Source: Gallionella sp. (GTDB taxonomy: Bacteria > Pseudomonadota > Gammaproteobacteria > Burkholderiales > Gallionellaceae). From it: DNA of 64,000 nt. Below are positions 7,684 to 47,061 of this stretch, one piece after another (the first letter of the stretch is position 1; the number at the start of each line of letters is the position of its first letter). Below the pieces are notes generated by a model. The model was not told the origin of the DNA. It worked only from the letters and a program-made list of their open reading frames with translations, and searched no databases. Made by a program: the position numbers and the translations under genes. The DNA lies in contig JAQTMZ010000001.1 of the NCBI GenBank assembly GCA_028714075.1, positions 279,753-343,752 of the forward strand. Reading direction: 5' to 3'.

Positions 7684-7727
7684 AATTTTATTTTATTATT
7701 AACGTTTGACATTGATAAGGAAAAATC

Positions 7728-8918
7728 ATGGCAAAGAGCAAATTTGAACGAACCAAGCCGCACGTCAACGTAGGGACGATCGGCCACGTGGATCACGGCA
7801 AGACCACCCTGACGGCGGCGATCACCACCGTCCTGTCGAAGAAATTCGGCGGCGAAGCCAAGGCGTACGACCAGATCGACGCGGCGCCGGAAGAAAAAGC
7901 GCGCGGCATCACGATCAACACCGCCCACGTCGAATACGAAACGGCCAACCGCCACTACGCCCACGTAGACTGCCCGGGCCACGCCGACTACATCAAGAAC
8001 ATGATCACCGGCGCCGCGCAAATGGACGGCGCGATCCTGGTCTGCTCCGCAGCCGACGGCCCGATGCCGCAAACACGCGAACATATTTTGCTGGCGCGCC
8101 AGGTAGGCGTACCTTACATCGTCGTATTCATGAACAAGTGCGACATGGTCGACGACGAAGAGCTGCTCGAACTGGTCGAAATGGAATTGCGCGAACTGCT
8201 CTCCAAATACGACTTCCCCGGCGACGATATCCCAATCATCAAAGGCTCCGCACTGAAAGCCCTGCAAGGCGACCAGAGCGACCTCGGCGAGCCGGCCATC
8301 TTCCGTCTGGCCGAAGCGCTCGACACTTATATCCCGCAGCCCAAGCGCGCGCTGGATGGCGCCTTCCTGATGCCGGTCGAAGACGTATTCTCGATCTCCG
8401 GCCGCGGCACCGTGGTGACCGGACGTATCGAACGCGGCGTCGTCAAGGTCGGCGAAGAACTCGAAATCGTCGGCATCAAGCCAACCCTGAAGACCACCTG
8501 CACCGGCGTGGAAATGTTCCGCAAACTGCTCGACCAGGGCCAGGCGGGCGACAACGTCGGCGTACTGCTGCGCGGCACCAAGCGCGAAGAAGTCGAGCGC
8601 GGCCAAGTGCTGGCCAAACCCGGCTCGATCACACCGCACACCAAATTCACCGCCGAAATCTATGTGTTGGGCAAAGACGAAGGCGGGCGCCATACCCCGT
8701 TCTTCCAGGGCTACCGTCCGCAGTTCTACTTCCGCACCACCGACGTGACCGGCGCGGTCGAGTTGCCGGCGGGCACCGAAATGGTCATGCCCGGCGACAA
8801 TGTCAGCATCACCGTGAACCTGATCAACCCGATCGCGATGGAAGAGGGCTTGCGTTTCGCGATCCGCGAAGGCGGCCGCACCGTCGGTGCGGGTGTGGTT
8901 GCAAAGATTATTGAGTAA
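7728..8918 (+). CDS. tuf: Elongation factor Tu (copy 1)
   Basis: [18 protein letters not shown] motifs. Confidence 0.99.
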
Positions 8919-24214: not shown

Positions 24215-24237
24215 TTTTGATTTAAGGGGCGATAATC

Positions 24238-25428
24238 ATGGCAAAGAGCAAATTTGAACGAACCAAGCCGCACGTCAACGTAGGGACGATCGGCCACGTG
24301 GATCACGGCAAGACCACCCTGACGGCGGCGATCACCACCGTCCTGTCGAAGAAATTCGGCGGCGAAGCCAAGGCGTACGACCAGATCGACGCGGCGCCGG
24401 AAGAAAAAGCGCGCGGCATCACGATCAACACCGCCCACGTCGAATACGAAACGGCCAACCGCCACTACGCCCACGTAGACTGCCCGGGCCACGCCGACTA
24501 CATCAAGAACATGATCACCGGCGCCGCGCAAATGGACGGCGCGATCCTGGTCTGCTCCGCAGCCGACGGCCCGATGCCGCAAACACGCGAACATATTTTG
24601 CTGGCGCGCCAGGTAGGCGTACCTTACATCGTCGTATTCATGAACAAGTGCGACATGGTCGACGACGAAGAGCTGCTCGAACTGGTCGAAATGGAATTGC
24701 GCGAACTGCTCTCCAAATACGACTTCCCCGGCGACGATATCCCAATCATCAAAGGCTCCGCACTGAAAGCCCTGCAAGGCGACCAGAGCGACCTCGGCGA
24801 GCCGGCCATCTTCCGTCTGGCCGAAGCGCTCGACACTTATATCCCGCAGCCCAAGCGCGCGCTGGATGGCGCCTTCCTGATGCCGGTCGAAGACGTATTC
24901 TCGATCTCCGGCCGCGGCACCGTGGTGACCGGACGTATCGAACGCGGCGTCGTCAAGGTCGGCGAAGAACTCGAAATCGTCGGCATCAAGCCAACCCTGA
25001 AGACCACCTGCACCGGCGTGGAAATGTTCCGCAAACTGCTCGACCAGGGCCAGGCGGGCGACAACGTCGGCGTACTGCTGCGCGGCACCAAGCGCGAAGA
25101 AGTCGAGCGCGGCCAAGTGCTGGCTAAACCCGGCTCGATCACACCGCACACCAAATTCACCGCTGAAATCTATGTGTTGGGCAAGGACGAAGGCGGGCGC
25201 CATACCCCGTTCTTCCAGGGCTACCGTCCGCAGTTCTACTTCCGCACCACCGACGTGACCGGTGCGGTCGAGTTGCCGGCGGGCACCGAAATGGTCATGC
25301 CTGGCGACAATGTCAGCATCACCGTGAACCTGATCAACCCGATCGCGATGGAAGAGGGCTTGCGTTTCGCGATCCGCGAAGGCGGCCGCACCGTCGGTGC
25401 GGGTGTGGTTGCAAAGATTATTGAGTAA
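24238..25428 (+). CDS. tuf: Elongation factor Tu (copy 2)
   Basis: Protein identical to 7728-8918. Confidence 0.99.
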
Positions 25429-30098: not shown

Positions 30099-30290
30099 AT
30101 GAAAGCCAGTGAATTGAAAACCAAGTCCGCGGCGGATTTGCAACAGGAAATGCTATCGCTGACCAAGGCGCAATTTGGCCTGCGCATGCAGATTGCCACA
30201 CAGCAAATGGCCAATACCAGTGAGTTGCGCAAAGTGCGCCGCGATATCGCCCGCGTGAAAACCATATTGAAAGAGAAGGGTGCCAGCTGA
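30099..30290 (+). CDS. rpmC: 50S ribosomal protein L29
   Basis: MKASELK...RRDIARVKT. Confidence 0.97.
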
Positions 30291-30553
30291 TGAGCGAGCC
30301 AAAACTGAAACGTACCCTGACCGGTACTATAACAAGCGACAAGATGGACAAGACCGTCACGGTTCTGGTCGAACGCAAAGTGAAACATCCGTTGCTGGGC
30401 AAGATCATTCGCGTTTCCAAGAAATATCACGCCCATGATGAAGCCAATGAGTTTCATGCAGGTGACGTGGTAATGATTGAAGAATGCCGCCCGATTGCCA
30501 AAACCAAGAGCTGGCGTGTGGCCAAACTGCTTGAGAAAGCACAAGCAGCCTAG
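30290..30553 (+). CDS. rpsQ: 30S ribosomal protein S17
   Basis: [17 protein letters not shown]. Confidence 0.98.
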
Positions 30554-30640
30554 TCAGAGCCGGCTTTTGTTGTAACTGTCTTATGCGCCCTGCGGCTTGC
30601 TGCGGGGCGTTTTCATTGGCCTTTTAAAACCACAACTCAA

Positions 30641-30750
30641 GCCACAGAGTTCACCGAGAGACCGGCGATTTAACACGCTTTCGTGACTCACCCAAAAGGT
30701 GAATCACTATTCTCTTCAGCCGGTTGTTTTTCCTCTGTGACCTCTGTGGC
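30641..30750. repeat. Miniature palindromic element GCCACAGAG...CTCTGTGACCTCTGTGGC
   Basis: Terminal inverted repeats around an internal hairpin (TCACC/GGTGA). Confidence 0.65.
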
Positions 30751-30774
30751 AAAACGCTTTTGCTGGCTGATTGC

Positions 30775-30814
30775 AAAAAAACCGTCCATGCTTTGCAGCA
30801 TGGACGGTTTTTGT
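30775..30814. terminator. Bidirectional terminator between rpsQ and metK
   Basis: A run-ACCGTCCATGC...GCATGGACGGT-T run. Confidence 0.8.
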
Positions 30815-30848
30815 TATTTCAACAGCAGCGTGCGGGTTGTCTGTTCTG

Positions 30849-32012
30849 CTACAGCCCGGCATCTGCACGCAGTGCCGCAGCCTTATCTGTGCTCTCCCAT
30901 TTGAATTCGGGTTCTTCACGGCCAAAATGGCCATAGGCTGCCGTTTTCTGGTAGATCGGGCGCAGCAGGTCGAGCATTTGCACGATACCTTTCGGGCGCA
31001 GGTCAAAATGCTTTTTGACCAACTCCGCAATCTTTTCATCGGTTACTTTTCCGGTGCCGTAAGTGGTGACCCAGACGCTGGTCGGGTGCGCTACGCCGAT
31101 CGCATAAGAAATCTGGATCAGGCATTTGCTGGCCAAGCCGGCAGCGACAATATTTTTGGCTACATAGCGGCCGGCGTAAGCGGCCGAGCGGTCTACCTTG
31201 GACGGGTCCTTGCCGGAGAATGCACCACCGCCGTGCGGCGCTGCGCCGCCGTAGGTGTCGACAATAATCTTGCGCCCGGTCAGGCCACAGTCGCCCTGCG
31301 GGCCGCCGACGACAAAACGTCCGGTCGGGTTGACTAGATACTTGATGTCGCCCTTGATCAGTTCCTTCGGCAATATTGGTTTGATGATTTCCTCGATGAC
31401 CGCTTCACGGATTTGCGCCAGCGTCATTTCCGGCGCGTGCTGTGTCGAGATCACCACGGTGTCGATGGAGTGCGGTTTGCCATCCATATAGCGGACGGTA
31501 ACCTGCGATTTGGCGTCCGGGCGCAACCAGGGTAAACGGCCATCGCGGCGCAGTTGCGCCTGGCGTTCCATTGCGCGGTGTGCCAGGTAGATCGGCAGCG
31601 GCATCAAGGTATCGGTTTCGTCGCAGGCATAGCCGAACATCAGCCCCTGATCGCCCGCACCCTGATCCATGTTGTCGTCATAAGCCTTGTTCACGCCCTG
31701 CGCGATATCCGGACTCTGCTTGTCATAGGCCACCAGCACCGCACAACCCTTGTAGTCGATGCCGTATTCGGTATTGTCATAGCCGATGCGCTTGATGGTG
31801 TCGCGTGCCACCTGAATATAATCGACCACGGCGGCGGTGGTGATCTCGCCGGCCAGTACCACGAGGCCGGTGTTGCACAGCGTTTCGGCGGCAACGCGCG
31901 AATGCTTGTCCTGCGCTAGAATGGCATCGACGATGGCATCGGAAATTTGATCTGCCACTTTATCGGGGTGGCCTTCGGACACGGATTCGGACGTAAACAA
32001 ATATTCGCTCAT
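30849..32012 (-). CDS. metK: S-adenosylmethionine synthetase
   Basis: [28 protein letters not shown]. Confidence 0.98.
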
Positions 32013-32664: not shown

Positions 32665-33279
32665 TTAGATATCCATCACTTCAAGAACGCTTAACACCTT
32701 CTGCACGCAATCCTGCAAATCCATCTCCGCTGTTTTTACCGTCAGTTCGGGCGCATCCGGCGGTTCGTAGGCAGAAGAAACACCGGTGAACTGGCCGATC
32801 TCCCCCGTGCGCGCTTTCTTGTACAGCCCCTTTACATCGCGCTGCTCGCATACTTCGATCGGGCATTGGCAATAAATCTCGATAAATTCGCCCGGCTGCA
32901 CCATGGCGCGCACCTTGTTGCGATCTTCGCGGAACGGTGAAATAAAGGCCGTCAGCACGATCACGCCAGCCTCCATGAAAAGCTTGGCGACTTCGCCGAC
33001 CCGGCGGATATTTTCAGCCCTGTCTGCTGCCGAAAATCCCAGATCCCCGCACAATCCATGGCGTACATTATCACCGTCCAGCACGAACGTCCGGCATCCC
33101 ATGCGATGCAGTTGCTCTTCCACGGCATGCGCCAGAGTTGACTTGCCTGCGCCTGAAAGCCCGGTAAACCAGAGAATGGCGCCGCGATGTTTGTTCATCG
33201 CCTCGCGCCGCGCGCGCGTTACCGTAGCGCGATGCCACACGACATTATCAGAAATCGAAGCGGTACTTTCATTTGCCAT
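32665..33279 (-). CDS. cysC: Adenylylsulfate (APS) kinase
   Basis: [33 protein letters not shown]. Confidence 0.96.
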
Positions 33280-33467
33280 GGTTCAGATTTTGATTCTTTG
33301 GCGTAAAGCGTTAAAAATTGATGTTGGAATATTGACAGGATACCGTGATGCGAGCCAAGCACAAATTATTTCTACATACTATGAATGTTATTTTAGGTGT
33401 TCGATCCGATTGGCTTTGTTAAAACTCAAGTAAAATACTTTGCAATGAATGATTGAGGATAGTGAGT

Positions 33468-35492
33468 GTGATACTAGGAAGAAACGATCCATGCATATGC
33501 GGCAGCGGGGAAAAGTACAAAAAATGCTGTGGCAGGCTCGAGTCCGGCCTGCCAGTTCAATCACGGCAGCAAAGTATCGATAACACTACACAGAACAGCT
33601 CTGTGAAGGGCGCTGTGCCTGTGCAAGACGAGTTTAACCAACTTATGGCCCTGTACAACGCCGGACACTATGCGGAGTTGGAAAGCAGGGCACATTTGCT
33701 GCTTGAGCAGCACCCGGATTCCGGGCTTGCCTGGAAAATACTGGGAGCTACTCTTCAGGTGCAAGGCAAAGACAGCTTGCACGCTTTGCGGAAGGCGACG
33801 GAGTTTTCACCCAATGATGCCGAGGCACATAACAATCTGGGTGCCGCCTTCAAGGATATAGGCAGGATGGATGAGGCCGAGGCTAGCCTTCGGCGCGCAC
33901 TGGAGATCAAACCGGAAATTGCCGAGGTACATAGCAATCTAGGTCAAATCCTGCTGGCGCAATGCAGGTTTGACGAGGCCGAGGTCAGTTATCGGCGGGC
34001 ATTAAAGATCAAACCTGGTTATGCCGAGGCATACGGTGGTTTGGGAGGAGCTCTCTTGTATATGGGTTGCCTGAACGAGGCAGAGGTCAACTGCCGGCGG
34101 GCGCTGGATATCCAGCCTGGTTTAGCCGAAGCGTACTGCAATTTGGGTGAAATATTAAGGCTTCAGGGACGCCTAGGCGAGGCCGAGGCCAGCTTTCGGC
34201 GGGCACTGGAGATCAAACCGGATTTCGTCGACGCATGGAGCACTTTGTTGTTTTCCTGTGGCTACCATGCCTTGCTTGATCCACGTGAATATCTTGCCCA
34301 AGCCCGCAATTGGGAACTGGACTGCGTGTCTGCACAGGACCGTCAGGCTGCGCATAACCGGACTTTTAACCGCATACCGCTCGCTGGCATGCGTCTGAGG
34401 GTGGGTTATGTGTCGGGAGATTACCGCCAGCACGCAGTGAGCTACTTTATAGAGCAGCTTTTCGCCCACCATGACCGTGCGCGAATAGAGCTATTCGCCT
34501 ATTCCAACCATGTGCAAAGCGATACCGTCACAGAACGTTTGCGAGCGCTGGTGGAACACTGGGTTCCAATCGCGGGAATTCCCGATGCGGCAATCCGGGA
34601 ACGGATAGAGGCAGACGGCATCGATGTGCTGATCGATCTGTCCGGCCACACCGGCCATAGCCGTCTAGGGATTTTTGCCCGCCGTGCCGCGCCAGTGCAG
34701 GCCCATTACCTGGGTTATTTCGCCAGCACGGGATTGACGGAAATGGACTACTGGATCGGCGATGAAATCCTGACCCCTCCAGAAACAGACAGCCATTTTA
34801 GCGAACGGGTCTGGCGCTTGCCGCGGGTGTGGGTAAGCTATGACGGCAAGGCTGGCGTTCCCGTTCCCGATTGGCAGCCAAGTCAGGACGGTGTCGTATG
34901 GTTGGGGAGTTTTAATAATCTGAGCAAGCTGACGCCAGCGACCCTGAACCTTTGGGCAAAGGTGCTCCATGCTCTGCCGGAGGGCAAGCTGCTGCTGAAG
35001 ACCAAAGAGCTAAGCGATAATGTTACTCGCCAGCGTATTTTGGATGCCATGTCGGGCTATGGCATTGGATCCGATCGCATTGAACTGCAAGGCAGCAGCG
35101 CCACGCCTGGTTGGATGGAGCATATGGCCTATTACAACCGGCTGGATATTGCGCTCGACCCTGTCGGCGGCGTGGGTGGCGGCACCACTACTTGCGATGC
35201 ACTGTGGATGGGGGTGCCGGTCATTGCCTGCGAGGGGGACCGTATGGCGTCGCTTATGACCGCCTCCATGCTGAACGCCGTCGGCCGCTCGGAATGGGTA
35301 GCACGCTCTGAGGCGGAATACATGGGCAAGGTTATTGCGCTTGCCCGTGATGTGGAACAGCGCAAGGCGCTTCGCTTTGTCCAGCGCAACCGGATGGCTT
35401 CCAGCCCGTTGTGCGATGCGCGTGGTTTGGCCATGTCCTTGGAGAATGCCTACTTTGAGATGTTCGAGCGGTGGTTCGATGAGAAAAATTAG
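33468..35492 (+). CDS. SEC-C + TPR + SPINDLY-like GT41 glycosyltransferase (copy A)
   Basis: GRNDPCICGSGEKYKKCC; four tandem 34-aa TPRs; RVGYVSGDYRQHAV, DLSGHT, GSFNNLSK, TTTCDALWMGVPV. Confidence 0.9.
   Translation: MILGRNDPCICGSGEKYKKCCGRLESGLPVQSRQQSIDNTTQNSSVKGAVPVQDEFNQLMALYNAGHYAELESRAHLLLEQHPDSGLAWKILGATLQVQGKDSLHALRKATEFSPNDAEAHNNLGAAFKDIGRMDEAEASLRRALEIKPEIAEVHSNLGQILLAQCRFDEAEVSYRRALKIKPGYAEAYGGLGGALLYMGCLNEAEVNCRRALDIQPGLAEAYCNLGEILRLQGRLGEAEASFRRALEIKPDFVDAWSTLLFSCGYHALLDPREYLAQARNWELDCVSAQDRQAAHNRTFNRIPLAGMRLRVGYVSGDYRQHAVSYFIEQLFAHHDRARIELFAYSNHVQSDTVTERLRALVEHWVPIAGIPDAAIRERIEADGIDVLIDLSGHTGHSRLGIFARRAAPVQAHYLGYFASTGLTEMDYWIGDEILTPPETDSHFSERVWRLPRVWVSYDGKAGVPVPDWQPSQDGVVWLGSFNNLSKLTPATLNLWAKVLHALPEGKLLLKTKELSDNVTRQRILDAMSGYGIGSDRIELQGSSATPGWMEHMAYYNRLDIALDPVGGVGGGTTTCDALWMGVPVIACEGDRMASLMTASMLNAVGRSEWVARSEAEYMGKVIALARDVEQRKALRFVQRNRMASSPLCDARGLAMSLENAYFEMFERWFDEKN
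34268..35467 (+). repeat. 1,200-bp direct repeat, copy 1
   Basis: Appears identical to 42146-43345 (offset 7,878); identical spurious ORFs recur at this offset in the track. Confidence 0.9.
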
Positions 35493-35524
35493 CAAGATTT
35501 GCACAACTACGTAAAATAGCGTGC

Positions 35525-36316
35525 ATGAAAAAAACTGACTCGGTACCGACAAACTGGCGCACTCCCCTTGAGACGCGCCCTGATCTTAACTTCGTCGTAA
35601 GGGATATGCAACGCACATTTCTGCGTGTGGCCGACAATCTGCGCTGGTACGAGCAGACTTGGCTCGGCGTCCCGATCTGGCAATTGCCGGATGACTTGGT
35701 AGCATTGCAGCGCATCGTGTCCGATGTCAATCCGAAGTGGATAGTCGAGACGGGCACCAAATTTGGCGGCTCGGCTATTTTTTTTGCATCGCTACTGGCG
35801 ATGATGGGGCGCACCGCCGAGTCTGGTGGCGGTATCATTACGGTGGATGTGCATGAAACGACCGAGGCGAAGGAGCTTTTGTTAGACAAGCCACACCGTT
35901 TTGCACCTTTGGTGCGCCAACGCCTGATTGGTGATGCCAAGGCGCCTGAAATACTTGCCTCCATAAGCGCAACGATTGCGGCTGATCCAGGCTCGGTGAT
36001 GGTTTTTCTAGACGATTGGCATGATGGTGACCATGTCTATGCCGAGATGTTGGTCTACTCAGAACTGGTGACACCGGGGGGAATCCTGATTGTCGCAGAT
36101 ACCACTTTCGAGGATCTGGCGGATACACCGGTAGTGGTGCCCAGCGAAAAATATCCCGATGCAAAGCGTTCCAATCCGCGTGTGGCATTAAGGCGCTTCC
36201 TGTCCGAACGCAGCGATTTTGCGGTGATTACGGATTACACTTCCACGGGGATCAGCAATTTTCCAGACAGCGTGCTGCGCAAGGCAGGGCTGGAAGCGCA
36301 CGGCAATTCAGCATGA
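35525..36316 (+). CDS. CmcI/cephalosporin-hydroxylase-family (sugar O-)methyltransferase
   Basis: WLGVPIWQLPDD, WIVETGTKFGGSA, VFLDDWHDGDHV, GGILIVADT. Confidence 0.85.
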   Translation: MKKTDSVPTNWRTPLETRPDLNFVVRDMQRTFLRVADNLRWYEQTWLGVPIWQLPDDLVALQRIVSDVNPKWIVETGTKFGGSAIFFASLLAMMGRTAESGGGIITVDVHETTEAKELLLDKPHRFAPLVRQRLIGDAKAPEILASISATIAADPGSVMVFLDDWHDGDHVYAEMLVYSELVTPGGILIVADTTFEDLADTPVVVPSEKYPDAKRSNPRVALRRFLSERSDFAVITDYTSTGISNFPDSVLRKAGLEAHGNSA

Positions 36317-36837
36317 TCCGTAAAGGGATACACCCTTCCGCCGTGGTGGAAAACTTGGGGTCTGTTCTGATACCCGAGAGCACAATAATAGAACCGCTTG
36401 CAGTGGTGTTTGTTGGCGGGCGGGGCAGGCTCAATCTAGGCGAGATGAACACGATCTATCCCGGTGCGACTATCCGCATTGATCAGGGATGGATGGAAAC
36501 CGGGAGAGAGGTGTCATTTGGCTCGGGTTGTCATATCTACGAACCTCGCGCCGGCCTTACCATTGGCGATCACAGTATGATTGGGGGTGGAGTGCTGATT
36601 TGCGGGGTGAATCATGGGTATGCCATTCGGGGTGAGCCCATGCGCCATCAGCCAGTTGAGGCAGCACCCATTGTGATCGGGAAGGATGTGTGGGTTGGTA
36701 TGGGCGCCATCATTTTGCCCGGCGTCACACTCGGAGACGGTGCAATTATTGCTGCCGGGGCGGTGGTGACATCCGACGTAGCACCAGGGGCTGTGGTAAG
36801 CGGTGTTCCGGCACGATTTGCGAAACACAGGGAGTAG
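36313..36837 (+). CDS. Left-handed beta-helix (hexapeptide) acyltransferase
   Basis: NHGY, PIVIGKDVWVG, AGAVVTSDV, GVPAR. Confidence 0.9.
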   Translation: MIRKGIHPSAVVENLGSVLIPESTIIEPLAVVFVGGRGRLNLGEMNTIYPGATIRIDQGWMETGREVSFGSGCHIYEPRAGLTIGDHSMIGGGVLICGVNHGYAIRGEPMRHQPVEAAPIVIGKDVWVGMGAIILPGVTLGDGAIIAAGAVVTSDVAPGAVVSGVPARFAKHRE

Positions 36838-36843
36838 AAAATT

Positions 36844-37380
36844 ATGAAACTTCATCTGGGTTGCGGCCCTCGTTATATACCGGGGTTTGTACATGTTGAC
36901 GCGCAGCATGCACCTCATGTGGATATTGTCGGGCCGGTAGAGTGCTTGCCGATGGATGACAATAGCGCCTCCCTGATCTATGCCAGCCATGTGCTGGAGC
37001 ACTTCGGGCGACATGCCTATAAAGAGGTACTCAAGGAATGGTTCCGGGTGCTGAAACCCGGCGGCATACTGCGCCTGTCGGTTCCGGACTTTGCCGCCTG
37101 CGCGGCGATTTATTACGAGAACGGTTTGGCCGATGGGCTAAGTGGACTGGTCGGCCTGATCATCGGCGGGCAGCGCAATGAGCACGACTTTCATAAAATG
37201 ATTTTTGATGAAGATTTTTTGCGCCGTGATCTTCTTTCGATCGGTTTTCGTGAAGTGCGGCGCTGGGATTGGCGGGCGACCGAGCACGCCGAAGTCGATG
37301 ACTATTCACAGGCGCACATACCGCACCTGCATAAAGAGGATGGCAGGTTGATGAGCCTCAACATTGAGGCCGTCAAGTAG
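36844..37380 (+). CDS. Class I SAM-dependent methyltransferase
   Basis: KLHLGCG, SHVLEH, RVLKPGGILRLSVPD. Confidence 0.88.
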   Translation: MKLHLGCGPRYIPGFVHVDAQHAPHVDIVGPVECLPMDDNSASLIYASHVLEHFGRHAYKEVLKEWFRVLKPGGILRLSVPDFAACAAIYYENGLADGLSGLVGLIIGGQRNEHDFHKMIFDEDFLRRDLLSIGFREVRRWDWRATEHAEVDDYSQAHIPHLHKEDGRLMSLNIEAVK

Positions 37381-37457
37381 TTGCGGGAGGGTGTGGCAGT
37401 GGGTCATCAGATCACCGAGGGTGTAATAAACCCAAATAATCCATTAACCCAAAGCTG

Positions 37458-37484
37458 CGTCATTCGGCGCAGGCCGGAATGACG
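37458..37484. repeat. Collapsed REP-like palindrome CGTCATTC-GGCGCAGGCC-GGAATGACG
   Basis: Inverted repeat in the methyltransferase-manC spacer. Confidence 0.5.
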
Positions 37485-37583
37485 GGCTAGTGGACTACCC
37501 GGGATAAACTCAAAACTCGAATCAAAAATGGTAAGTAAAAAATCGACTGTTGCCAACGTAATATTTTAGGGGAAGGTGGCATT

Positions 37584-39107
37584 TTGAAGCAGAAAAGTAT
37601 TTGTGCGACTATTCTCGCTGGTGGTAGCGGTAGCCGCTTGTGGCCGCTATCGCGCCGACATTTGCCCAAACAATTTCTGTCACTGAATGGTGACATGTCG
37701 CTGCTGCAAACCACCATCAACCGCCTGGCACCGGTGATTGATGCCAAGAATATCCTGATTGTCACGCAAGAGGCACTCGCCAAAGGCGAGGCTTATCACG
37801 CACTGCTGCCCTATCAGAGCCTGTTTGAACCGGTTGGGCGTAACACTGCCCCGGCCATCGCCCTGGCGGCCGCCTACCTGATGTTGGATGGCGCGGATCC
37901 TATCATGGTCGTGTTGCCTGCCGACCACATCATCAAAGATGAAGTGCGTTTTCTCGCGCATTTGAATATTGCGATTGAAGCTGCCGAGAGTGGCAAGCTC
38001 ATTACCTTCGGCATTCAGCCCACTCGACCTGATACCGGCTTCGGCTATATCAAAGCTAAAAAAAGGACTGAGTGCCAAGAACCGAGGACTGAGGAGCGGG
38101 GGCCGAGTGCAAAAGCAGCGAGTGGTTCTACTCAGCCCGCAGCCCTCGAACCTCATTCCTGTATTTATGAAGTCGAGCGCTTTATCGAAAAGCCAGACCA
38201 CGCTACCGCCGAGCACTTTCTCAAGGAAGGCGATTTCTATTGGAACTCCGGCATGTTCGTCTGGCGTGCTTCGGTGATTCTGGCTGAAATCGAGCAACAC
38301 CTGCCTGCTGTTTATCAGGTAATTCAAAACATCATTGCAGAGAGCTACTCCGCTGGAACATTCCAGCAAGCCGTAGAAAATCACTTCGCCGCCATGCCCT
38401 CAGTTTCCATCGATTACGGCGTATTGGAGAAATCCAGCCGCGTATCATTGATCCGCTGCGACATCGGCTGGAACGATGTGGGCAGTTGGCAGGCCGTTCA
38501 CGAAATTTCCGCCAAAGATGAAAACGGTAATGTGCTGCAAGGCAACGTCATCGCACTGGATTGCAAAAATAGTTTGATCCGTGCCGAGAAACGACTGGTT
38601 GCTGCCATCGGCGTGGAAGATATTTGCGTTATCGAAACTGCCGATGCGGTACTGATCTCAAAAAACGACCAGACTCAGCGTGTGCGCGAAGTGGTCGATG
38701 TCCTTCATCATTGCGGTGCGACCGAGCATGTTTATCACGCCAAGGTCAATCGTCCGTGGGGTAGCTACACAATACTGGAGGAAGATCAGGAAGGCTTCAA
38801 GATCAAACGCATCGAAGTTGCTCCGGGTGCGCGACTCAGCCTGCAAAGTCATAATCAGCGCTCCGAGCATTGGGTAGTAGTCGCCGGCACGGCAACCATT
38901 ACTAATGGTGATGAAGTGATTACCGTGCAGAAAAACCAGAGTACCTACATTCCGATAGGCGCGAAACATCGCTTGGAAAATCGTGCTAGCGAACCGTTGC
39001 ACATCGTTGAAGTGCAGGTTGGTAACTATCTGGACGAGGATGACATTCAGCGATATGAAGATAATTACGGCAGGCAGCCAGCAATCACAAAGGGTATTGA
39101 AAAATGA
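37584..39107 (+). CDS. manC: Mannose-1-P guanylyltransferase/mannose-6-P isomerase with ~32-aa insertion
   Basis: [31 protein letters not shown]-terminal cupin ([12 protein letters not shown]). Confidence 0.95.
38064..38160. repeat. Heptamer tandem-repeat hairpin inside manC, in frame
   Basis: (AGGACTG)-like x6 ... (CTCAGCC)-like x4; encodes [32 protein letters not shown]. Confidence 0.75.
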
Positions 39108-40198
39108 GCCCAACTAAAAAAGTTGCATTGATCACCGGCATTACCGGACAGGACGGGGCCTACCTTGCCGAGTTCCTGCTTAAAAAAGGCTATGACGTAC
39201 ATGGCGTTAAACGGCGCTCATCCCTGTTCAACACGGACCGTATCGATCACCTTTACCAAGATCCGCACGTCAATGATGCGCACTTTTTTTTGCACTACGG
39301 CGACCTGACCGATTCTACCAACCTGATCCGCATCATCCAGCAGGTGCAGCCCGACGAGATATACAATCTCGCGGCGATGAGCCATGTCGCGGTTTCCTTT
39401 GAAACACCCGAATACACTGCTAATGTAGATGGCGTAGGGACGCTACGTATTCTCGAAGCGATCCGTATCCTCGGTATGGAAAAGAAAACCCGTTTCTACC
39501 AGGCATCCACCTCCGAGCTATACGGACTGGTGCAGGAAACTCCGCAAAAGGAAACCACGCCGTTCTATCCGCGCAGCCCCTACGCAGTGGCCAAGCTATA
39601 CGCTTACTGGATTACCATCAATTACCGCGAGGCTTATGGCATCTACGCTTGCAACGGTATCCTGTTCAATCACGAAAGCCCCGTTCGCGGTGAAACCTTT
39701 GTCACGCGCAAGATCACCCGCGCTTTGGCTCGCATCAAACTCGGCCTACAGGATTGCCTTTACCTCGGCAATCTCGATGCACTGCGCGATTGGGGGCACG
39801 CTAAAGACTATGTCGAAATGCAATGGCTGATGTTGCAGCAGGAGCAAGCCGAGGATTTTGTGATCGCCACTGGCGTACAGTACAGCGTGCGCCAGTTCGT
39901 CGAAATCGCGGCGCAGGAACTGGGTATCAGCATCAAATGGCAAGGCTCAGGGGCGAACGAAAAAGGCTGCAACGCTGCCGGACAATGCATCGTGCAAGTC
40001 GATCCGCGTTACTTCCGCCCCACCGAAGTCGAAACCCTGCTGGGTGATCCCACTAAAGCCAAACAAAAACTCGGCTGGACAACGAAGATCACCTTCCACG
40101 AAATGGTGGCCGAAATGGTGTGCGAAGATCTCAAGAGCGCCGAGCGCGATGAACTGGTCAAAAAGCACGGCTTTGCCGCATACGATTACCACGAATAA
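39104..40198 (+). CDS. gmd: GDP-mannose 4,6-dehydratase
   Basis: GITGQDG, YQASTSE, SPYAVAK. Confidence 0.98.
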
Positions 40199-40207
40199 AG
40201 AGCATCG

Positions 40208-41191
40208 ATGGACAAGCACAGCAAAATCTACATCGCCGGTCATTGTGGCCTTGCCGGTAGCGCAATCATGCGCGAGCTGCAACGGCAAGGCTACACCAAT
40301 CTGGTAGGGCGTACGCACGCCGAACTGGACTTGGAAGACGCTGTTGCCACACATCAATTCTTCGAGCAAGAGCGTCCTCAGGTGGTATTTTTGGCTGCGG
40401 CCAAAGTCGGCGGCATCCATGCCAACAGCACCTATCCGGTGGAATTCCTGATGAGCAACCTGCTGGTTGAGGCCAGCGTCTGCCGTGCTGCTCACGCGAC
40501 AGACGTGAAACGACTGATCTTTCTGGGGAGCTCCTGCATCTACCCGCGCGATTGCCCGCAGCCGATCAAGGAAGAATATCTGCTCACCGGCCCACTCGAA
40601 GCAACCAACCGTCCTTATGCTCTGGCCAAGATCGCCGGTATCGAAATGTGCTGGTCATATAATCGTCAGTATGGCACCAAATGGCTGGCTGCGATGCCGA
40701 CCAACTTGTATGGCCCCGGCGACAGTTACGATTTGAATAATTCCCATGTTCTGCCCGCGCTGATCCGCAAGATGCACGAGGCGAAAGTTTCCGGTGCGAC
40801 TGAGGTGGTGTTGTGGGGCAGCGGCAAACCCAAGCGCGAGTTTATGTATGTAGATGATCTGGCGAATGCGTTGGTGTTCTTGGCGGCTTTGGACGATCAG
40901 TGTTACAACTTATTAGTTGCTCCCGCTTTGTGTCCGATTATCAATATTGGCACAGGCGAAGACGTAACCATTCGCGAACTAGCAGAGGTAATTGCTGGCG
41001 TAGTGGGTTACACAGGCAAGTTTATACAAGATACACACCAACCGGATGGCACAATGCGTAAGGTACTGGATGTGTCAAAGATTCAAGGCTTGGGGTGGCA
41101 GGCGAGTACAAACCTAAAAAAAGGCATTGGTTTAACCTACAATGAATTTAGCAAATTGGCTCCAATTCCAGATAGGGCTGCCGCTAATTGA
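40208..41191 (+). CDS. fcl: GDP-L-fucose synthase
   Basis: AAAKVGGIHAN, LGSSCIYP, YALAK, PTNLYGP, SHVLPAL. Confidence 0.96.
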   Translation: MDKHSKIYIAGHCGLAGSAIMRELQRQGYTNLVGRTHAELDLEDAVATHQFFEQERPQVVFLAAAKVGGIHANSTYPVEFLMSNLLVEASVCRAAHATDVKRLIFLGSSCIYPRDCPQPIKEEYLLTGPLEATNRPYALAKIAGIEMCWSYNRQYGTKWLAAMPTNLYGPGDSYDLNNSHVLPALIRKMHEAKVSGATEVVLWGSGKPKREFMYVDDLANALVFLAALDDQCYNLLVAPALCPIINIGTGEDVTIRELAEVIAGVVGYTGKFIQDTHQPDGTMRKVLDVSKIQGLGWQASTNLKKGIGLTYNEFSKLAPIPDRAAAN

Positions 41192-41450
41192 CTACCGACA
41201 ACCGTTCGGTTTGGCCCTTCGGTTTCACTCAGGACTAAAGATATTGTTGAAGGCAAGTAGTGGCAAGGTAATTGTGATTCGACAGGTTCTGATAACAGTT
41301 AATTAGTGACTAATGCGATACTCTGTGCTAAGCCACTGTTTAGCTACGAGCGGCTTAGTTGAGGTTTGCCCGCCCTATGCCGGTTGTGTCATGAAGTTAA
41401 GTCCGTGAGATAAAATGCCCCGCAAAGAATCGGTCGAAGGAATGTAATAA

Positions 41451-43367
41451 ATGAGATCAGGAAGAAACGATCCGTGCATCTGCGGTAGCGGGAAGAAATA
41501 CAAGAAATGCTGTGGCCAGCCCGAACCCAGCTTACCGGTTCAACCACGGCAACCTCAAAATACTGCTGCGCATAACCGCTCTGCGACGGGTGTAACGCCT
41601 GCACAAGACGAATTAAATCACCTTGCCGGGTTGTTTAATGCAGGCCGCCATGCGGAGTTGGAAAGTCGGACGCGCCTGCTGCTTGAGCGGTATCCGGATT
41701 CCGGACTTGTTTGGAAAATACTGGGAGCTATTCTTCAGATACAAGGCAAAGACAGCTTGTCCGCTTTGCAGAAGGCAGCGGAACTTCTACCTGATAGTGC
41801 CGATGTATACAACAATCTGGGCCTCGCCTTTATGGATGTGGACAGACTGGATGAGGCCGAGGCCAGCCTTCGGCACGCACTGAAGATTAAACCGGGTTTT
41901 GCTGAGGCATGTAGCAATCTTGGCATCGTTCTCAGGAGCATGGCTCGATTGGATGAAGCAGAAGCCAGCTACCGGCGGGCGCTTCAGACCGAGCCTGATT
42001 ATGCCGAGGCGCACTACAATTTGGGTATCACCCTTCAGGAGTTGGGACGCCTGAACGAGGCCGAGGCCAGCTTTCGGCGGGCACTGGAGATCAAGCCGGA
42101 TTATGCCAGGGCGCATAGCAATATGCTTTTTCTCCACGGCTATCGTGCCTTGCTTGATCCACGTGAATATCTTGCCCAAGCCCGCAATTGGGAACTGGAC
42201 TGCGTGTCTGCACAGGACCGTCAGGCTGCGCATAACCGGACTTTTAACCGCATACCGCTCGCTGGCATGCGTCTGAGGGTGGGTTATGTGTCGGGAGATT
42301 ACCGCCAGCACGCAGTGAGCTACTTTATAGAGCAGCTTTTCGCCCACCATGACCGTGCGCGAATAGAGCTATTCGCCTATTCCAACCATGTGCAAAGCGA
42401 TACCGTCACAGAACGTTTGCGAGCGCTGGTGGAACACTGGGTTCCAATCGCGGGAATTCCCGATGCGGCAATCCGGGAACGGATAGAGGCAGACGGCATC
42501 GATGTGCTGATCGATCTGTCCGGCCACACCGGCCATAGCCGTCTAGGGATTTTTGCCCGCCGTGCCGCGCCAGTGCAGGCCCATTACCTGGGTTATTTCG
42601 CCAGCACGGGATTGACGGAAATGGACTACTGGATCGGCGATGAAATCCTGACCCCTCCAGAAACAGACAGCCATTTTAGCGAACGGGTCTGGCGCTTGCC
42701 GCGGGTGTGGGTAAGCTATGACGGCAAGGCTGGCGTTCCCGTTCCCGATTGGCAGCCAAGTCAGGACGGTGTCGTATGGTTGGGGAGTTTTAATAATCTG
42801 AGCAAGCTGACGCCAGCGACCCTGAACCTTTGGGCAAAGGTGCTCCATGCTCTGCCGGAGGGCAAGCTGCTGCTGAAGACCAAAGAGCTAAGCGATAATG
42901 TTACTCGCCAGCGTATTTTGGATGCCATGTCGGGCTATGGCATTGGATCCGATCGCATTGAACTGCAAGGCAGCAGCGCCACGCCTGGTTGGATGGAGCA
43001 TATGGCCTATTACAACCGGCTGGATATTGCGCTCGACCCTGTCGGCGGCGTGGGTGGCGGCACCACTACTTGCGATGCACTGTGGATGGGGGTGCCGGTC
43101 ATTGCCTGCGAGGGGGACCGTATGGCGTCGCTTATGACCGCCTCCATGCTGAACGCCGTCGGCCGCTCGGAATGGGTAGCACGCTCTGAGGCGGAATACA
43201 TGGGCAAGGTTATTGCGCTTGCCCGTGATGTGGAACAGCGCAAGGCGCTTCGCTTTGTCCAGCGCAACCGGATGGCTTCCAGCCCGTTGTGCGATGCGCG
43301 TGGTTTGGCCATGTCCTTGGAGAATGCCTACTTTGAGATGTTCGAAGAAAAAATGGGGCAAGGATGA
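41451..43367 (+). CDS. SEC-C + TPR + SPINDLY-like GT41 glycosyltransferase (copy B)
   Basis: GRNDPCICGSGKKYKKCC; three tandem TPRs; catalytic part identical to copy A. Confidence 0.9.
   Translation: MRSGRNDPCICGSGKKYKKCCGQPEPSLPVQPRQPQNTAAHNRSATGVTPAQDELNHLAGLFNAGRHAELESRTRLLLERYPDSGLVWKILGAILQIQGKDSLSALQKAAELLPDSADVYNNLGLAFMDVDRLDEAEASLRHALKIKPGFAEACSNLGIVLRSMARLDEAEASYRRALQTEPDYAEAHYNLGITLQELGRLNEAEASFRRALEIKPDYARAHSNMLFLHGYRALLDPREYLAQARNWELDCVSAQDRQAAHNRTFNRIPLAGMRLRVGYVSGDYRQHAVSYFIEQLFAHHDRARIELFAYSNHVQSDTVTERLRALVEHWVPIAGIPDAAIRERIEADGIDVLIDLSGHTGHSRLGIFARRAAPVQAHYLGYFASTGLTEMDYWIGDEILTPPETDSHFSERVWRLPRVWVSYDGKAGVPVPDWQPSQDGVVWLGSFNNLSKLTPATLNLWAKVLHALPEGKLLLKTKELSDNVTRQRILDAMSGYGIGSDRIELQGSSATPGWMEHMAYYNRLDIALDPVGGVGGGTTTCDALWMGVPVIACEGDRMASLMTASMLNAVGRSEWVARSEAEYMGKVIALARDVEQRKALRFVQRNRMASSPLCDARGLAMSLENAYFEMFEEKMGQG
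42146..43345 (+). repeat. 1,200-bp direct repeat, copy 2
   Basis: Appears identical to 34268-35467. Confidence 0.9.
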
Positions 43368-45391
43368 CAAGTATGAAACCTGGAAGAAACGACCCATGCA
43401 TTTGCGGCAGCGGGAAAAAATACAAAAAATGCTGTGGCCAGCCCGAACCCGGCTTGCCGGTTCAATCACGGCAACACCGGAATATCGCTGCGCAAAACAG
43501 CCTTGCAAAGGGTGCAGCACCTGCACAAGATGAATTAAATCGGCTTATCGCCCTGTACAACGCCGGAAGTTATGCGGAGCTGGAAAACCGGACATATCTG
43601 CTGCTTGATCGGTATCCGGATTCCGGGTTTACCTGGAAAGTATTGGGCGTAACCCTTCAGATGCAGGGCAAAGACAGCCTGCCTGCCTTGCGGAAAGCGA
43701 CAGAACTTTTGCCGGACGATGCAGATGCGCATTACAACCTTGGGAATACCCTCATGATGCTGGGGCGGTTGGACGAGGCCGAGGCCAGCTACCGGTGCGC
43801 GCTACGGATTCAACCGGATTATGTCGACGCTTATTATAATTTGGGGAATACCCTGCGGAACATGGGTCGCATTGGTGAGGCAGAAGCCAGCTACCGGCAG
43901 GCACTGCGGATCAAGCCGGATTACGCCGAAGTGTATAGCAATCTGGGGAACGTCATGCTGGAACAGGGTCGGCTAGCCGAGGCCGAGGCCAGCTACCGGC
44001 AGGCGTTACGGATCAAACCGGATTATGCTGCGGCGCATTACAATCTGGGTAATTTTCTTCATGACCGGAGTCGTCTGGATGAGGCCGAGGCCAGTTTCCG
44101 GCGGGTGCTGCAAATCAAGCCGGACTATGCCGATGCGCACAGTAATTTGGGCAATGTCCTTCAGGATATGGGTCGGCTGGCCGAGGCTGAGGCCAGTTAC
44201 CGGCGGGCGTTACAGAACAAGCCTGACCACGCCGAAGCATATAGCAATCTGGGGAATACCCTTCTGGAGTTGGGCCGCATAGCTGAGGCCGAGGCCAGCC
44301 ATCGACATGCGCTGGAAATCAAACCGGACTTTGTTGAGGGGCGTTTCAATTTTACGCTGGCAAAAAAGGCGAAGGCTGGCGACGAAAACCTGGTGGCATT
44401 GGAAGCCGCCGAGGAAGCGGTGCGGGACGGCACCGCCACGCTATCGAATAAAGAGGCGGTGTACCTGCATTTTGCGCTGGGTAAAAGCTATGACGACCTC
44501 GGCGATTACGAAAAAGCCTTTCCGCATTTCCTCGAAGGCTGCAAGCTGAAGCGCGCTACATTTGGCCATGATCCAGATCATGCCTCGCGGCTTTTTGCCG
44601 GCATCATGCGCAATCTTGATGCAGCGGCGATAGACCGGCTGCGTGGCGGCGGCGATCCCTCGAATCTGCCGATTTTCGTGCTGGGCATGCCGCGCTCTGG
44701 CACCACGCTCACCGAGCAGATTATCGCCAGCCATCCCGAGGTTCACGGCGCCGGGGAGTTGCCCGACCTGATACGGATTGCGCGGCGCGACATTGACGGT
44801 GCTGCCTTCCCGGATAACCTGCGCCTGTTCGACCAGGCGCGGCTCAGCGCTTGGGGGGCGGAATATGTAGCCGGCTTGCAGCGGCGCGCACCGGATGCGC
44901 GCCGCATCACCGACAAGATGCCGGAGAATTTTCTGGTTGTCGGTCTGATCCACCTGATGCTGCCTAACGCGAAGATCATCCATGTCAACCGCAATCCGGT
45001 GGATACCTGCCTGTCCTGCTTTACCAAACTGTTCAAGCACCAGCATGAATACACCTACGATCTGGCCGAGCTGGGGCGCTACTATGCCGGTTATGCCCGC
45101 CTGATGGACCATTGGCGCAAGGTGTTGCCAGGCGGCGCCTTCCTCGATGTGCGGTATGAAGATCTGGTGGCGGACCAGGAGGCGCAGTCGCGCCGCATCA
45201 TCGGGTATTGTGGGCTGGAGTGGAACGATGCATGTATCGATTTTTACAACAACAAGCGCCCGGTAAGCACTGCCAGCATGGCGCAGGTGCGCCAGCCGAT
45301 GTACAAATCGTCGGTGGAACGCTGGCGGCATTATGAGAAATTCCTCGGGCCGTTGCTCGATGCGCTCGGTGAGCTTGTTACCGAGCGGTAA
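43364..45391 (+). CDS. SEC-C + TPR + PAPS-dependent sulfotransferase
   Basis: GRNDPCICGSGKKYKKCC; six tandem TPRs; GMPRSGTTL (5'-PSB loop), RNPVDTCLS (3'-PB), VRYEDLV. Confidence 0.9.
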   Translation: MTSMKPGRNDPCICGSGKKYKKCCGQPEPGLPVQSRQHRNIAAQNSLAKGAAPAQDELNRLIALYNAGSYAELENRTYLLLDRYPDSGFTWKVLGVTLQMQGKDSLPALRKATELLPDDADAHYNLGNTLMMLGRLDEAEASYRCALRIQPDYVDAYYNLGNTLRNMGRIGEAEASYRQALRIKPDYAEVYSNLGNVMLEQGRLAEAEASYRQALRIKPDYAAAHYNLGNFLHDRSRLDEAEASFRRVLQIKPDYADAHSNLGNVLQDMGRLAEAEASYRRALQNKPDHAEAYSNLGNTLLELGRIAEAEASHRHALEIKPDFVEGRFNFTLAKKAKAGDENLVALEAAEEAVRDGTATLSNKEAVYLHFALGKSYDDLGDYEKAFPHFLEGCKLKRATFGHDPDHASRLFAGIMRNLDAAAIDRLRGGGDPSNLPIFVLGMPRSGTTLTEQIIASHPEVHGAGELPDLIRIARRDIDGAAFPDNLRLFDQARLSAWGAEYVAGLQRRAPDARRITDKMPENFLVVGLIHLMLPNAKIIHVNRNPVDTCLSCFTKLFKHQHEYTYDLAELGRYYAGYARLMDHWRKVLPGGAFLDVRYEDLVADQEAQSRRIIGYCGLEWNDACIDFYNNKRPVSTASMAQVRQPMYKSSVERWRHYEKFLGPLLDALGELVTER

Positions 45392-45469: not shown

Positions 45470-45498
45470 TTGACAGTGCTTCCATCCGCTTCTATAGT
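45470..45498 (+). promoter_or_regulatory. Near-consensus sigma70 promoter of cyc2
   Basis: TTGACA-17-TATAGT. Confidence 0.8.
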
Positions 45499-45580: not shown

Positions 45581-46930
45581 ATGAAGAAAATCGTTCTCTC
45601 ACTGGCAGGCGTGTTGGCAGCAACCGCATTTGCTCCTGAAGCATCGGCTATCCCGTCGTTTGCCCGTCAAACCGGCATGGCGTGTAACTCTTGCCACTTT
45701 AATTCTTACCCAGCGCTGACCAGTTTCGGTCGTGCGTTCAAGTCCGGCGGCTACACCATGATGGGCGCGCAAGCCAAGGTTGAAGGCGATCACGGTCTGT
45801 CTATTCCTGCAACCCTGAACGCTTCGGTTTATACGCAAATGCGTTACATCAAAACCAATGGCTCAAGCTTTGCGGCTGGCAGCACTAAGGTTGCCAACGA
45901 AGGCCGCTTCGACGTTCCAGACGAAATGGCCCTGTTCCTGGGTGGCCGCGTATCTGAAAACATCGGCGCAATGGTGGAAGTTGCAATACCTGGTACGGTA
46001 ACCATGGCCAACCTCAAGATGCCGTTTGTGTTCGATGCGGGTGGTGCGAAATTAGGCTTTATCCCTTTCACCACGAACGGTCTTGGCCCAGCAGCAGCTT
46101 TTGACCTGTTCGGCACCGGCTCCAACGCCGCCGGCCGCGTCACTGAAAACGGTATTGGCTATAGCGCCGCAGAATATCTGGGTACAACGAACGCCAAGGC
46201 TGCAACCGGCGTAGCGCTGGTGGCAAGCAGCGACCAGTTCCATGTGGCCGTGACTCCTTATTCCGGCACGGGTGCTGCTGTGCAAACATCCAAACTGGGC
46301 GCAACCTATCTGCGCGCCGCTTGGACACCCAGCTATAACAACTGGGATCTGGGTTTGGGTCTGCAGAACTTCAGCGGCAAGCCTAACAGGGGCCTCGCGG
46401 CTACAACTCTAGATCAGAGCGAAGATCGTGCGACTATCGTTGACTTCCAGGCTCAAGGCGAAGCAGGCGGTATGCCTTTGGGTATCTATGGTAGCTATGG
46501 TACTGCCCCTGCGTCTACTGTAGGCGCAGTTGCAGGTGGAGCAGGCTTCAACAACCTGAACATCAGCCAAACTAATCGCAGGACCTCCTTCGGTTTGCTG
46601 GGCGATTTGTGGGTAATGCCCGGCACCTTGGGTCTGCAACTCGGCTTCATGCGCGCCAAAACAGGTTTGGCTAACACCAATACCACCGGACAGGAAAACG
46701 ACAATTCCTACACGATCGGCGCACGTTACAAGATGCGTCAAAACGTGAAGCTGGGCTTGGCTTACACCAAGTTCTCCGGTTCCGCGTATGACATCGGTGG
46801 TTCCGGTGGCGCCAATACGGCCAACTACGCTCCTATCGCAGCAGCCGGTACTCTGGGTGCAGCGGCGGGTGGCGTGGCAGGTGGATTGGGTAATAGCCGC
46901 CTGACACTCATCCTGTCCGCCGGTTGGTAA
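45581..46930 (+). CDS. cyc2: Cyc2 outer-membrane cytochrome-porin (Fe(II) oxidase candidate)
   Basis: Signal peptide, then IPSFARQTGMACNSCH...PALTSFGRAFK..GY signature with a single CxxCH; beta-barrel ending in W. Confidence 0.93.
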   Translation: MKKIVLSLAGVLAATAFAPEASAIPSFARQTGMACNSCHFNSYPALTSFGRAFKSGGYTMMGAQAKVEGDHGLSIPATLNASVYTQMRYIKTNGSSFAAGSTKVANEGRFDVPDEMALFLGGRVSENIGAMVEVAIPGTVTMANLKMPFVFDAGGAKLGFIPFTTNGLGPAAAFDLFGTGSNAAGRVTENGIGYSAAEYLGTTNAKAATGVALVASSDQFHVAVTPYSGTGAAVQTSKLGATYLRAAWTPSYNNWDLGLGLQNFSGKPNRGLAATTLDQSEDRATIVDFQAQGEAGGMPLGIYGSYGTAPASTVGAVAGGAGFNNLNISQTNRRTSFGLLGDLWVMPGTLGLQLGFMRAKTGLANTNTTGQENDNSYTIGARYKMRQNVKLGLAYTKFSGSAYDIGGSGGANTANYAPIAAAGTLGAAAGGVAGGLGNSRLTLILSAGW

Positions 46931-47008: not shown

Positions 47009-47030
47009 AAACAAAAGCAGTTGATGTATA

Positions 47031-47061
47031 ACAGGGGAGACTTCGGTCTCCCCTGTTTTTT
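47031..47061 (+). terminator. cyc2 terminator
   Basis: ACAGGGGAGAC-TTCG-GTCTCCCCTGT-TTTTT. Confidence 0.9.

Follow-up and report, generated by a model that had tools for sequence, protein, structure and literature searches.

Two diverged TPR-fused genes of Gallionella sp. with one identical, probably gene-converted, GT41 catalytic module

We analyzed a 64,000-nucleotide stretch of the genome of the iron-oxidising bacterium Gallionella sp., GCA_028714075.1 (2.83 Mb, a draft in 27 contigs), located on contig JAQTMZ010000001.1 (C1:279753-343752) and called here the window. In this window two genes, which we refer to as gene A and gene B, each join an N-terminal SEC-C/TPR module to a GT41 glycosyltransferase domain, and together they bracket a cassette of six genes (Table 1). 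The catalytic parts of A and B were found to be identical letter by letter over 1,200 bp, whereas their SEC-C/TPR parts have diverged. The best explanation for this pattern is a recent interlocus gene conversion limited to the linker and the catalytic module, or an equivalent double-crossover patch, for which we estimate a probability of about 0.72; within this reading we infer the mechanism of recombination, the direction of donation and the functional consequence.

The original prediction, made by eye, had described a perfect 1,200-bp direct repeat around the cassette, and direct pairwise comparison of the window bore this out, with 1200 of 1200 bases the same in the two copies. Their offset of 7,878 (3 x 2,626) places both copies in the same reading frame, and the 1,200-bp block is the longest exact run at this offset. 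The change is abrupt at both edges. The 5′ edge lies right after the last TPR unit, between ...GY(H/R) and ALLDPREY, and the flanks on that side are still homologous, with 60-84% identity across 370 bp. The 3′ edge lies 8 codons before the stop of gene A and 7 codons before the stop of gene B; from there on the flanks are non-homologous, with an identity of 16-28% directly 3′ of the repeat, i.e., the random level. A DNA search of the draft returned exactly two copies, the next-best matches reaching 68-75% over just 80-130 bp, and the block was also the longest exact repeat of the whole assembly, followed by runs of 953, 921, 904, and 891 bp. An identity of this length is far beyond chance.

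The same prediction had the repeat covering almost exactly the GT41 catalytic domain, and this held with one addition, since the repeated segment (residues 272-671 of gene A) comprises a linker of ~40 residues along with the entire domain. The domain matched PF13844 (Glyco_transf_41; E 3e-50, 171 bits vs. a cut-off of 25), aligned in a single continuous stretch to residues 161-516 of the Thermobaculum terrenum OGT (TtOGT; 5djs, E 4e-78) and aligned continuously to Arabidopsis SPINDLY (SPY; 7y4i, E 2e-69). By these matches A and B are predicted to be protein-glycosylating GT41 (CAZy family 41, OGT/SPY type) glycosyltransferases.

The 5′ halves had been described as diverged, and they were: the SEC-C/TPR modules of A and B have 72% nucleotide and 63% amino-acid identity and differ by one 34-residue TPR unit, which is missing in gene B. 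Over 231 codons their synonymous divergence (dS) was 0.79 and their nonsynonymous divergence (dN) 0.25, giving a dN/dS of ~0.32; these values show that the two modules are old paralogues, both under purifying selection. A third paralogue is the N-terminal module of the downstream gene C, which encodes a sulfotransferase domain (73% amino-acid identity to B and 67% to A; dS 1.1-1.3). Across the A/B alignment the divergence shifts abruptly, synonymous sites included, from these values to zero substitutions (dS 0) over the 400 codons of the catalytic part; had this part the age of the 5′ half, about one hundred synonymous changes, or more, should have accumulated there. Since 400 codons carry no substitution, the catalytic identity points to a recent event overlaid on old paralogues. 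It is this contrast, dS 0 vs. ~0.8, that upholds the suggestion of a recent conversion or domain exchange which keeps one catalytic module under two different TPR modules.

Comparison with related genomes pointed in the same direction. The catalytic copies of A and B (100%) match each other far better than either matches any orthologue, the best of which (locus L041) has 81.5% amino-acid identity; only two species of the same genus have an orthologue of this domain, each in single copy and with 67-68% amino-acid identity. Two further genomes (loci L049 and L052) have two copies each of this GT41 clade, which are 81 and 90% identical in DNA, respectively. In a quick maximum-likelihood tree of the catalytic domain, in which support was given by the Shimodaira-Hasegawa-like approximate likelihood ratio test (SH-aLRT) only, the within-genome pairs were sisters in all three genomes (A/B, L049, and L052), with SH-aLRT values of 93 and 90 for the pairs that are not identical.

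Moreover, the mosaic is a recurrent habit across TPR-GT41 paralogues. A second TPR-GT41 pair of the same genome (893 and 910 residues) lies ~70 kb upstream of the window, directly downstream of fliD (region C1:202443-210117), which was identified by Pfam FliD_N/FliD_C. The N-terminal parts of the pair share blocks of 395 bp (99.5% identity) and 673 bp (97.3%) and its catalytic parts are ~70% identical, i.e., the mosaic is the reverse of that in A and B, with a near-identical N-terminus and a diverged catalytic part. These fliD-linked genes are probably flagellin glycosyltransferases. In a closed genome of the same genus (G008, 3.14 Mb), two GT41 paralogues of 795 residues, located 770 kb apart and with 73% amino-acid identity overall, share 1,466 bp at 99.93% over their catalytic end (G008 C1:1959022-1960487 vs. 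2729143-2730608), and one of them has 814 bp of its N-terminal part in common, at 99.9%, with its neighbour. Another genome (G015:C2:239000-253000; L123 2399-9058) carries a tandem array of four TPR-fused genes, of which three have GT41 domains, with common N-terminal blocks of 430-530 bp at 98.7-100% identity, and a block of 1,004 bp at 99.9% was found at locus L094. No such near-identical blocks were found in the fragmented metagenome-assembled genomes examined, an absence to be expected if repeats of this kind break short-read assemblies. Thus the comparison with related genomes supports the conversion reading, both by the recurrence of the mosaic, closed genome included, and by the paralogue pairs that are sisters within genomes.

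The proposed course of events is the following. At the outset A and B would have been old paralogous, SEC-C/TPR-fused GT41 genes of SPINDLY/TtOGT-like type, and a recent non-reciprocal homologous exchange would have overwritten the linker and catalytic domain of one gene with those of the other. The conversion tract would have run to the limits of alignable homology, that is, to the TPR/catalytic junction on the 5′ side and, on the 3′ side, to the last 8 (A) or 7 (B) codons before the stop, where the tail of B holds the ribosome-binding site of the sulfotransferase gene. The outcome would be one catalytic chemistry on two TPR arrays, presumably of different acceptor preference, and, as a by-product, a 1.2-kb direct repeat that would make the 7,878-bp unit prone to RecA-type deletion or amplification.

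As to the direction, we infer, weakly, that gene A is the more likely donor, on three grounds. Gene A is the positional orthologue of the GT41 gene in a core conserved in many relatives, which consists of GT41, a CmcI-type methyltransferase (MT), an acetyltransferase (AT) and a second MT (GT41-MT-AT-MT); its tail, ...FEMFE followed by RWFDEKN, keeps the ...FEMFERW... consensus found in ~50 relatives; and the divergence of its catalytic domain from L041 (81.5%) is in line with that of its neighbours (85-90%). The tail of gene B, ...FEMFE followed by EKMGQG, is unique and encodes the AAGGA ribosome-binding site of gene C. In the relatives compared, the conserved core is followed neither by manC-gmd-fcl nor by a second GT41 gene nor by a sulfotransferase gene, and the layout of A, cassette and B was present in none of them, same-genus genomes included.

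Several points weigh against gene conversion. The tract ends exactly at the limits of homology on both sides, and a one-off illegitimate copy of the domain or a collapsed consensus would look no different. The tail of gene B lacks the conserved RW of the family, so that a full homologous GT41 3′ end may never have been part of this gene. Both perfect identity (rather than identity of at least 99.5%) and two-copy threading depend on a draft assembly whose 27 contigs include some with N gaps. Finally, 2.7 kb upstream, the junction between rpsQ and metK is unique to this assembly and could be either a real rearrangement or a mis-join: the S10 ribosomal operon ends at rpsQ, after which metK lies on the opposite strand (30290-30849), rplN of the spc operon lies on a different contig (C11:11070), rpmC-rpsQ was adjacent to metK in none of 16 relatives, and the junction (~30623-30812) carries a short repeat family that is present also on contigs C6, C7, and C10.

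One alternative is hard to separate from conversion, namely an illegitimate domain insertion or swap. In this reading B, a SEC-C/TPR gene that ended in a different C-terminal domain or had none, recently received a 1.2-kb copy from A, for which no earlier homology along the tract would have been required. The abruptness of both edges, the 3′ side dropping straight into non-homology, and the absence of the conserved ERW from the tail of B would fit such an event, and gene C, in which the same N-terminal module is joined to a sulfotransferase, indicates that module-level fusions do arise in the family. However, the 370 bp 5′ of the edge are homologous and in the same TPR register, and the TPR end of B resembles that of a GT41 gene. 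Relatives with two copies, 80-90% identical along the catalytic domain, provide the expected substrate for homologous conversion, and the near-identical blocks in G008 and G015 lie within otherwise homologous genes. Taken together, an insertion appears unlikely.

Somewhat less likely still is an assembly artefact, by which similar domains were flattened into one consensus, a gap was filled from the paralogue, or a collapsed repeat was mis-threaded, possibly from a mixture of strains. Such an artefact would be in keeping with a draft in which four of the 27 contigs carry N gaps, with an identity that stops exactly at the limit of homology, with a repeat that is the longest exact one of the assembly, and with the odd rpsQ/metK junction nearby, itself at a short repeat family. 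Against it, the assembly kept other long repeats apart. The two tuf copies of the window, used as an internal control, lie 16.5 kb from each other and were separated by the assembler, with 5 mismatches in 1,195 bp clustered at 8615-8792; repeats of 1,384 bp (98.7%), 1,208 bp (97.5%), and 931 bp (99.7%) also stayed distinct, and exact runs of 890-950 bp were crossed inside contigs. Because mismatches in other long near-identical repeats are preserved, flattening of this repeat by consensus is unlikely. Contig C1 contains no N, the repeat lies at neither a contig end nor a gap, and a search of the whole assembly found no orphan contig with a diverged third copy. The reading frames are intact across both repeat junctions, and the sole alternative threading requires a single fused gene on the chromosome and, separately, a 7.9-kb circle devoid of replication genes. 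That the closed genome G008 shows the same pattern also speaks against an artefact.

The direct repeat raises the question of what recombination between its copies would produce. The original prediction had RecA excising a 7,878-bp circle and leaving TPR-A fused to the catalytic domain, and this geometry was reproduced by computation: the deletion would yield an in-frame chimera of 678 residues, in which TPR-A and the catalytic domain are joined to the B tail and which would still overlap the beginning of gene C. The loss would comprise both methyltransferase genes, the acetyltransferase gene, manC, gmd, and fcl, together with the SEC-C/TPR-B module. Recombination potential of this kind belongs to any 1.2-kb direct repeat, for which a background of deletion, circle or amplification junctions of ~1e-5 to 1e-4 is to be expected.

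A broader version of the conversion reading, which we consider quite improbable, holds that the identity is not incidental but selected: the SEC-C/TPR-fused modification enzymes of Gallionellaceae would make up a mix-and-match system, with conversion re-assorting variable, acceptor-binding TPR heads and constant catalytic bodies, and in this genome the repeats would also gate a heritable loss or amplification of the fucose cassette. If it were true, it would mean population-level variation in surface or protein decoration, for which a Cyc2-like iron oxidase, encoded downstream of gene C, is one conceivable target.

It had also been proposed that the repeat could act as an on/off or dosage switch for the modification. 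On such a reading the repeat would be kept because the 7,878-bp cassette, excised or amplified by RecA, turns a sugar decoration on and off or sets its dose within populations. The geometry permits this, as the intact chimera would stay coupled to the sulfotransferase gene while all sugar-tailoring and GDP-fucose genes go, and manC-gmd-fcl, which the orthologous loci lack, is an accessory addition. Nevertheless, the switch is unsupported and highly improbable. A deletion between direct repeats is one-way and effectively irreversible, and the proteins searched between 27 and 52 kb yielded no recombinase gene, site-specific recombinases included. The protein and contig collections, which contain no near-identical sequence, showed no variant arrangement: an exact-protein look-up found no protein on record identical to A or B, and in a search of 5.8 billion proteins the non-self matches all had ≤71% identity, with no strain variants or deletion chimeras for comparison. 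Furthermore, identical blocks occur elsewhere 770 kb apart or in adjacent genes with no cassette bracketed, so that the identity is explained without a switch.

Three further origins of the repeat were rejected: a simple tandem duplication, as only the catalytic segment is duplicated and the intervening genes are not; Campbell-type integration of a foreign circle, which would give identical repeats only if the circle came from the same clone; and a mobile element or site-specific cassette, as there are no inverted repeats, no motif is common to both edges, and the proteins searched between 27 and 52 kb include no recombinase.

Regarding the donor sugar, O-fucosylation is suggested by the adjacent GDP-fucose genes and by the resemblance to SPY. 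The bulky aromatic residue Y744 of SPY has been proposed as a determinant of donor-pocket size (Zhu et al., PMC9715652). The position aligned to it in A and B is Val/Gly, within a glycine-rich PVGGVGGG loop (35100-35130, motif PVGGVGGGTTTCD), and therefore a SPY-like restriction to GDP-fucose is unsupported by this marker. The absence of the Y744 marker and the lack of linkage of manC-gmd-fcl to the orthologous module in relatives both weaken the case for O-fucosylation. By analogy with OGT and SPY (PMC9715652), the TPR arrays would target the acceptors.

The coordinates of the locus are collected in Table 1. The open reading frame of gene A opens at TTG 33453, and GTG 33468, which lies 8 nt after a GAGGA, is the likely start. 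The database gene call for this gene (623 residues) begins at an internal GTG, so that the SEC-C motif is lost. The longer protein is favoured by the GAGGA 8 nt before GTG 33468, and its N-terminus resembles the starts of genes B and C (M..GRNDPCICGSG). Within the cassette, the product of the shorter methyltransferase gene matched only part of its profile; however, this gene is kept at full length, with 69-89% identity, beside GT41 in many relatives, even outside Betaproteobacteria, and by this conservation it is a genuine, if short, member of the conserved GT41-MT-AT-MT module. On the distal side of the cassette, the stop of gene B overlaps the start of gene C, and the two genes are predicted to be translationally coupled.

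Directly after gene C we observed a Cyc2-like gene (45581-46930), whose product combines a signal peptide and one CNSCH haem motif with a porin-like body that ends in ...LILSAGW, with no match in Pfam or NCBIfam. It has a promoter-like site of its own at 45470-45498 (11/12) and is followed by a strong terminator at 47030-47057.

Table 1. Features of the A/B locus, control genes of the window and the comparable block of the closed genome G008. Positions are those of the window except in the last row.
Feature	Position	Strand	Description
tuf copy 1	7724-8918	+	internal control
tuf copy 2	24234-25428	+	internal control
cysC	32665-33279	-	
Gene A	33453-35492	+	SEC-C zinc motif, ~6 TPR units, GT41 domain
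SEC-C/TPR module A	33468-34267	+	diverged; 266 aa
Repeat copy 1	34268-35467	+	codons 272-671 of gene A; linker and complete GT41 catalytic domain; 100% in genome search
Unique segment between repeats	35468-42145	+	6,678 bp; A tail, six cassette genes, SEC-C/TPR-B module
CmcI/rhamnosyl-type O-methyltransferase	35525-36316	+	by Pfam/NCBIfam
Hexapeptide acetyltransferase	36313-36837	+	by Pfam/NCBIfam
Methyltransferase	36844-37380	+	178 aa; only positions 30-93 of 95 of the Methyltransf_11 profile
manC	37584-39107	+	by Pfam/NCBIfam
gmd	39104-40198	+	by Pfam/NCBIfam
fcl	40208-41191	+	by Pfam/NCBIfam
Gene B	41451-43367	+	SEC-C, ~5 TPR units, GT41 domain; 638 aa
SEC-C/TPR module B	41451-42145	+	diverged; 231 aa; one TPR unit fewer than A
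Repeat copy 2	42146-43345	+	linker and complete GT41 catalytic domain of gene B; 100% in genome search
Gene C	43364-45391	+	SEC-C, TPR, sulfotransferase domain (Pfam Sulfotransfer_3, E 1e-48)
1,466-bp block of G008	L118 5022-6487 / L119 7143-8608		

Genes A and B provide a clean bacterial example of different recognition arrays joined to one letter-identical catalytic module. Loci of this kind are liable to mis-assembly and to mis-called orthology, and the bracketed cassette, with its methyl- and acetyltransferases and GDP-fucose synthesis, would be structurally unstable, and differences between strains may therefore occur in it. What the two enzymes modify, and with which donor sugar, are the more interesting questions.

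As for the mechanism, the case of A and B would, on the favoured reading, be a known type of event, domain-restricted gene conversion between paralogues, and it reveals no new mechanism. Interlocus conversion between tufA and tufB of Salmonella and E. coli is said to have been described by Abdulkarim and Hughes in 1996, and the tuf pair of the window is a classic pair of that type. In both cases dispersed paralogues of one chromosome are identical or nearly so over ~1.2 kb, through a non-reciprocal homologous exchange that is known for tufA/tufB and proposed for A and B; however, the whole tuf gene is homogenised, whereas in A and B only the catalytic domain is and the 5′ targeting half has diverged, and the A/B copies are direct repeats around accessory genes. 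RecA-dependent deletion and amplification between direct repeats is known as gene duplication-amplification. A 1.2-kb perfect direct repeat around 6.7 kb, with a predicted deletion product in frame, resembles such systems, with the difference that no deletion or copy-number variant of the A/B locus was observed in the protein and contig collections.

Domain-restricted concerted evolution is known from TLR1 and TLR6. In Helicobacter pylori, domain-level recombination among hsdS genes has been termed 'domain movement' (PMC3077401). In these systems, as in A and B, recombination tracts match protein-domain modules, and recognition parts are re-assorted against catalytic or constant parts; they concern other protein families and organisms. 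At the level of whole genes, the part of the survey of Wang and Chen (2018; PMC6053082) available to us gives 26 prokaryotic genes with long-lasting concerted evolution. The GT41 pairs are like these in that paralogues within a genome are closer than orthologues between species, in several lineages; compared with that part of the survey, the GT41 pattern differs in being domain-restricted, mosaic and apparently episodic, with pairs that range from 80% to 100%. In architecture, A and B resemble SPINDLY (7y4i, 8dtf) and TtOGT (5djs), which likewise have a TPR array and then a GT-B domain, the intervening domain of the metazoan enzymes being absent; they differ from both by their N-terminal SEC-C zinc motif and from SPINDLY by having Val/Gly, not Tyr, at the position aligned to Y744.

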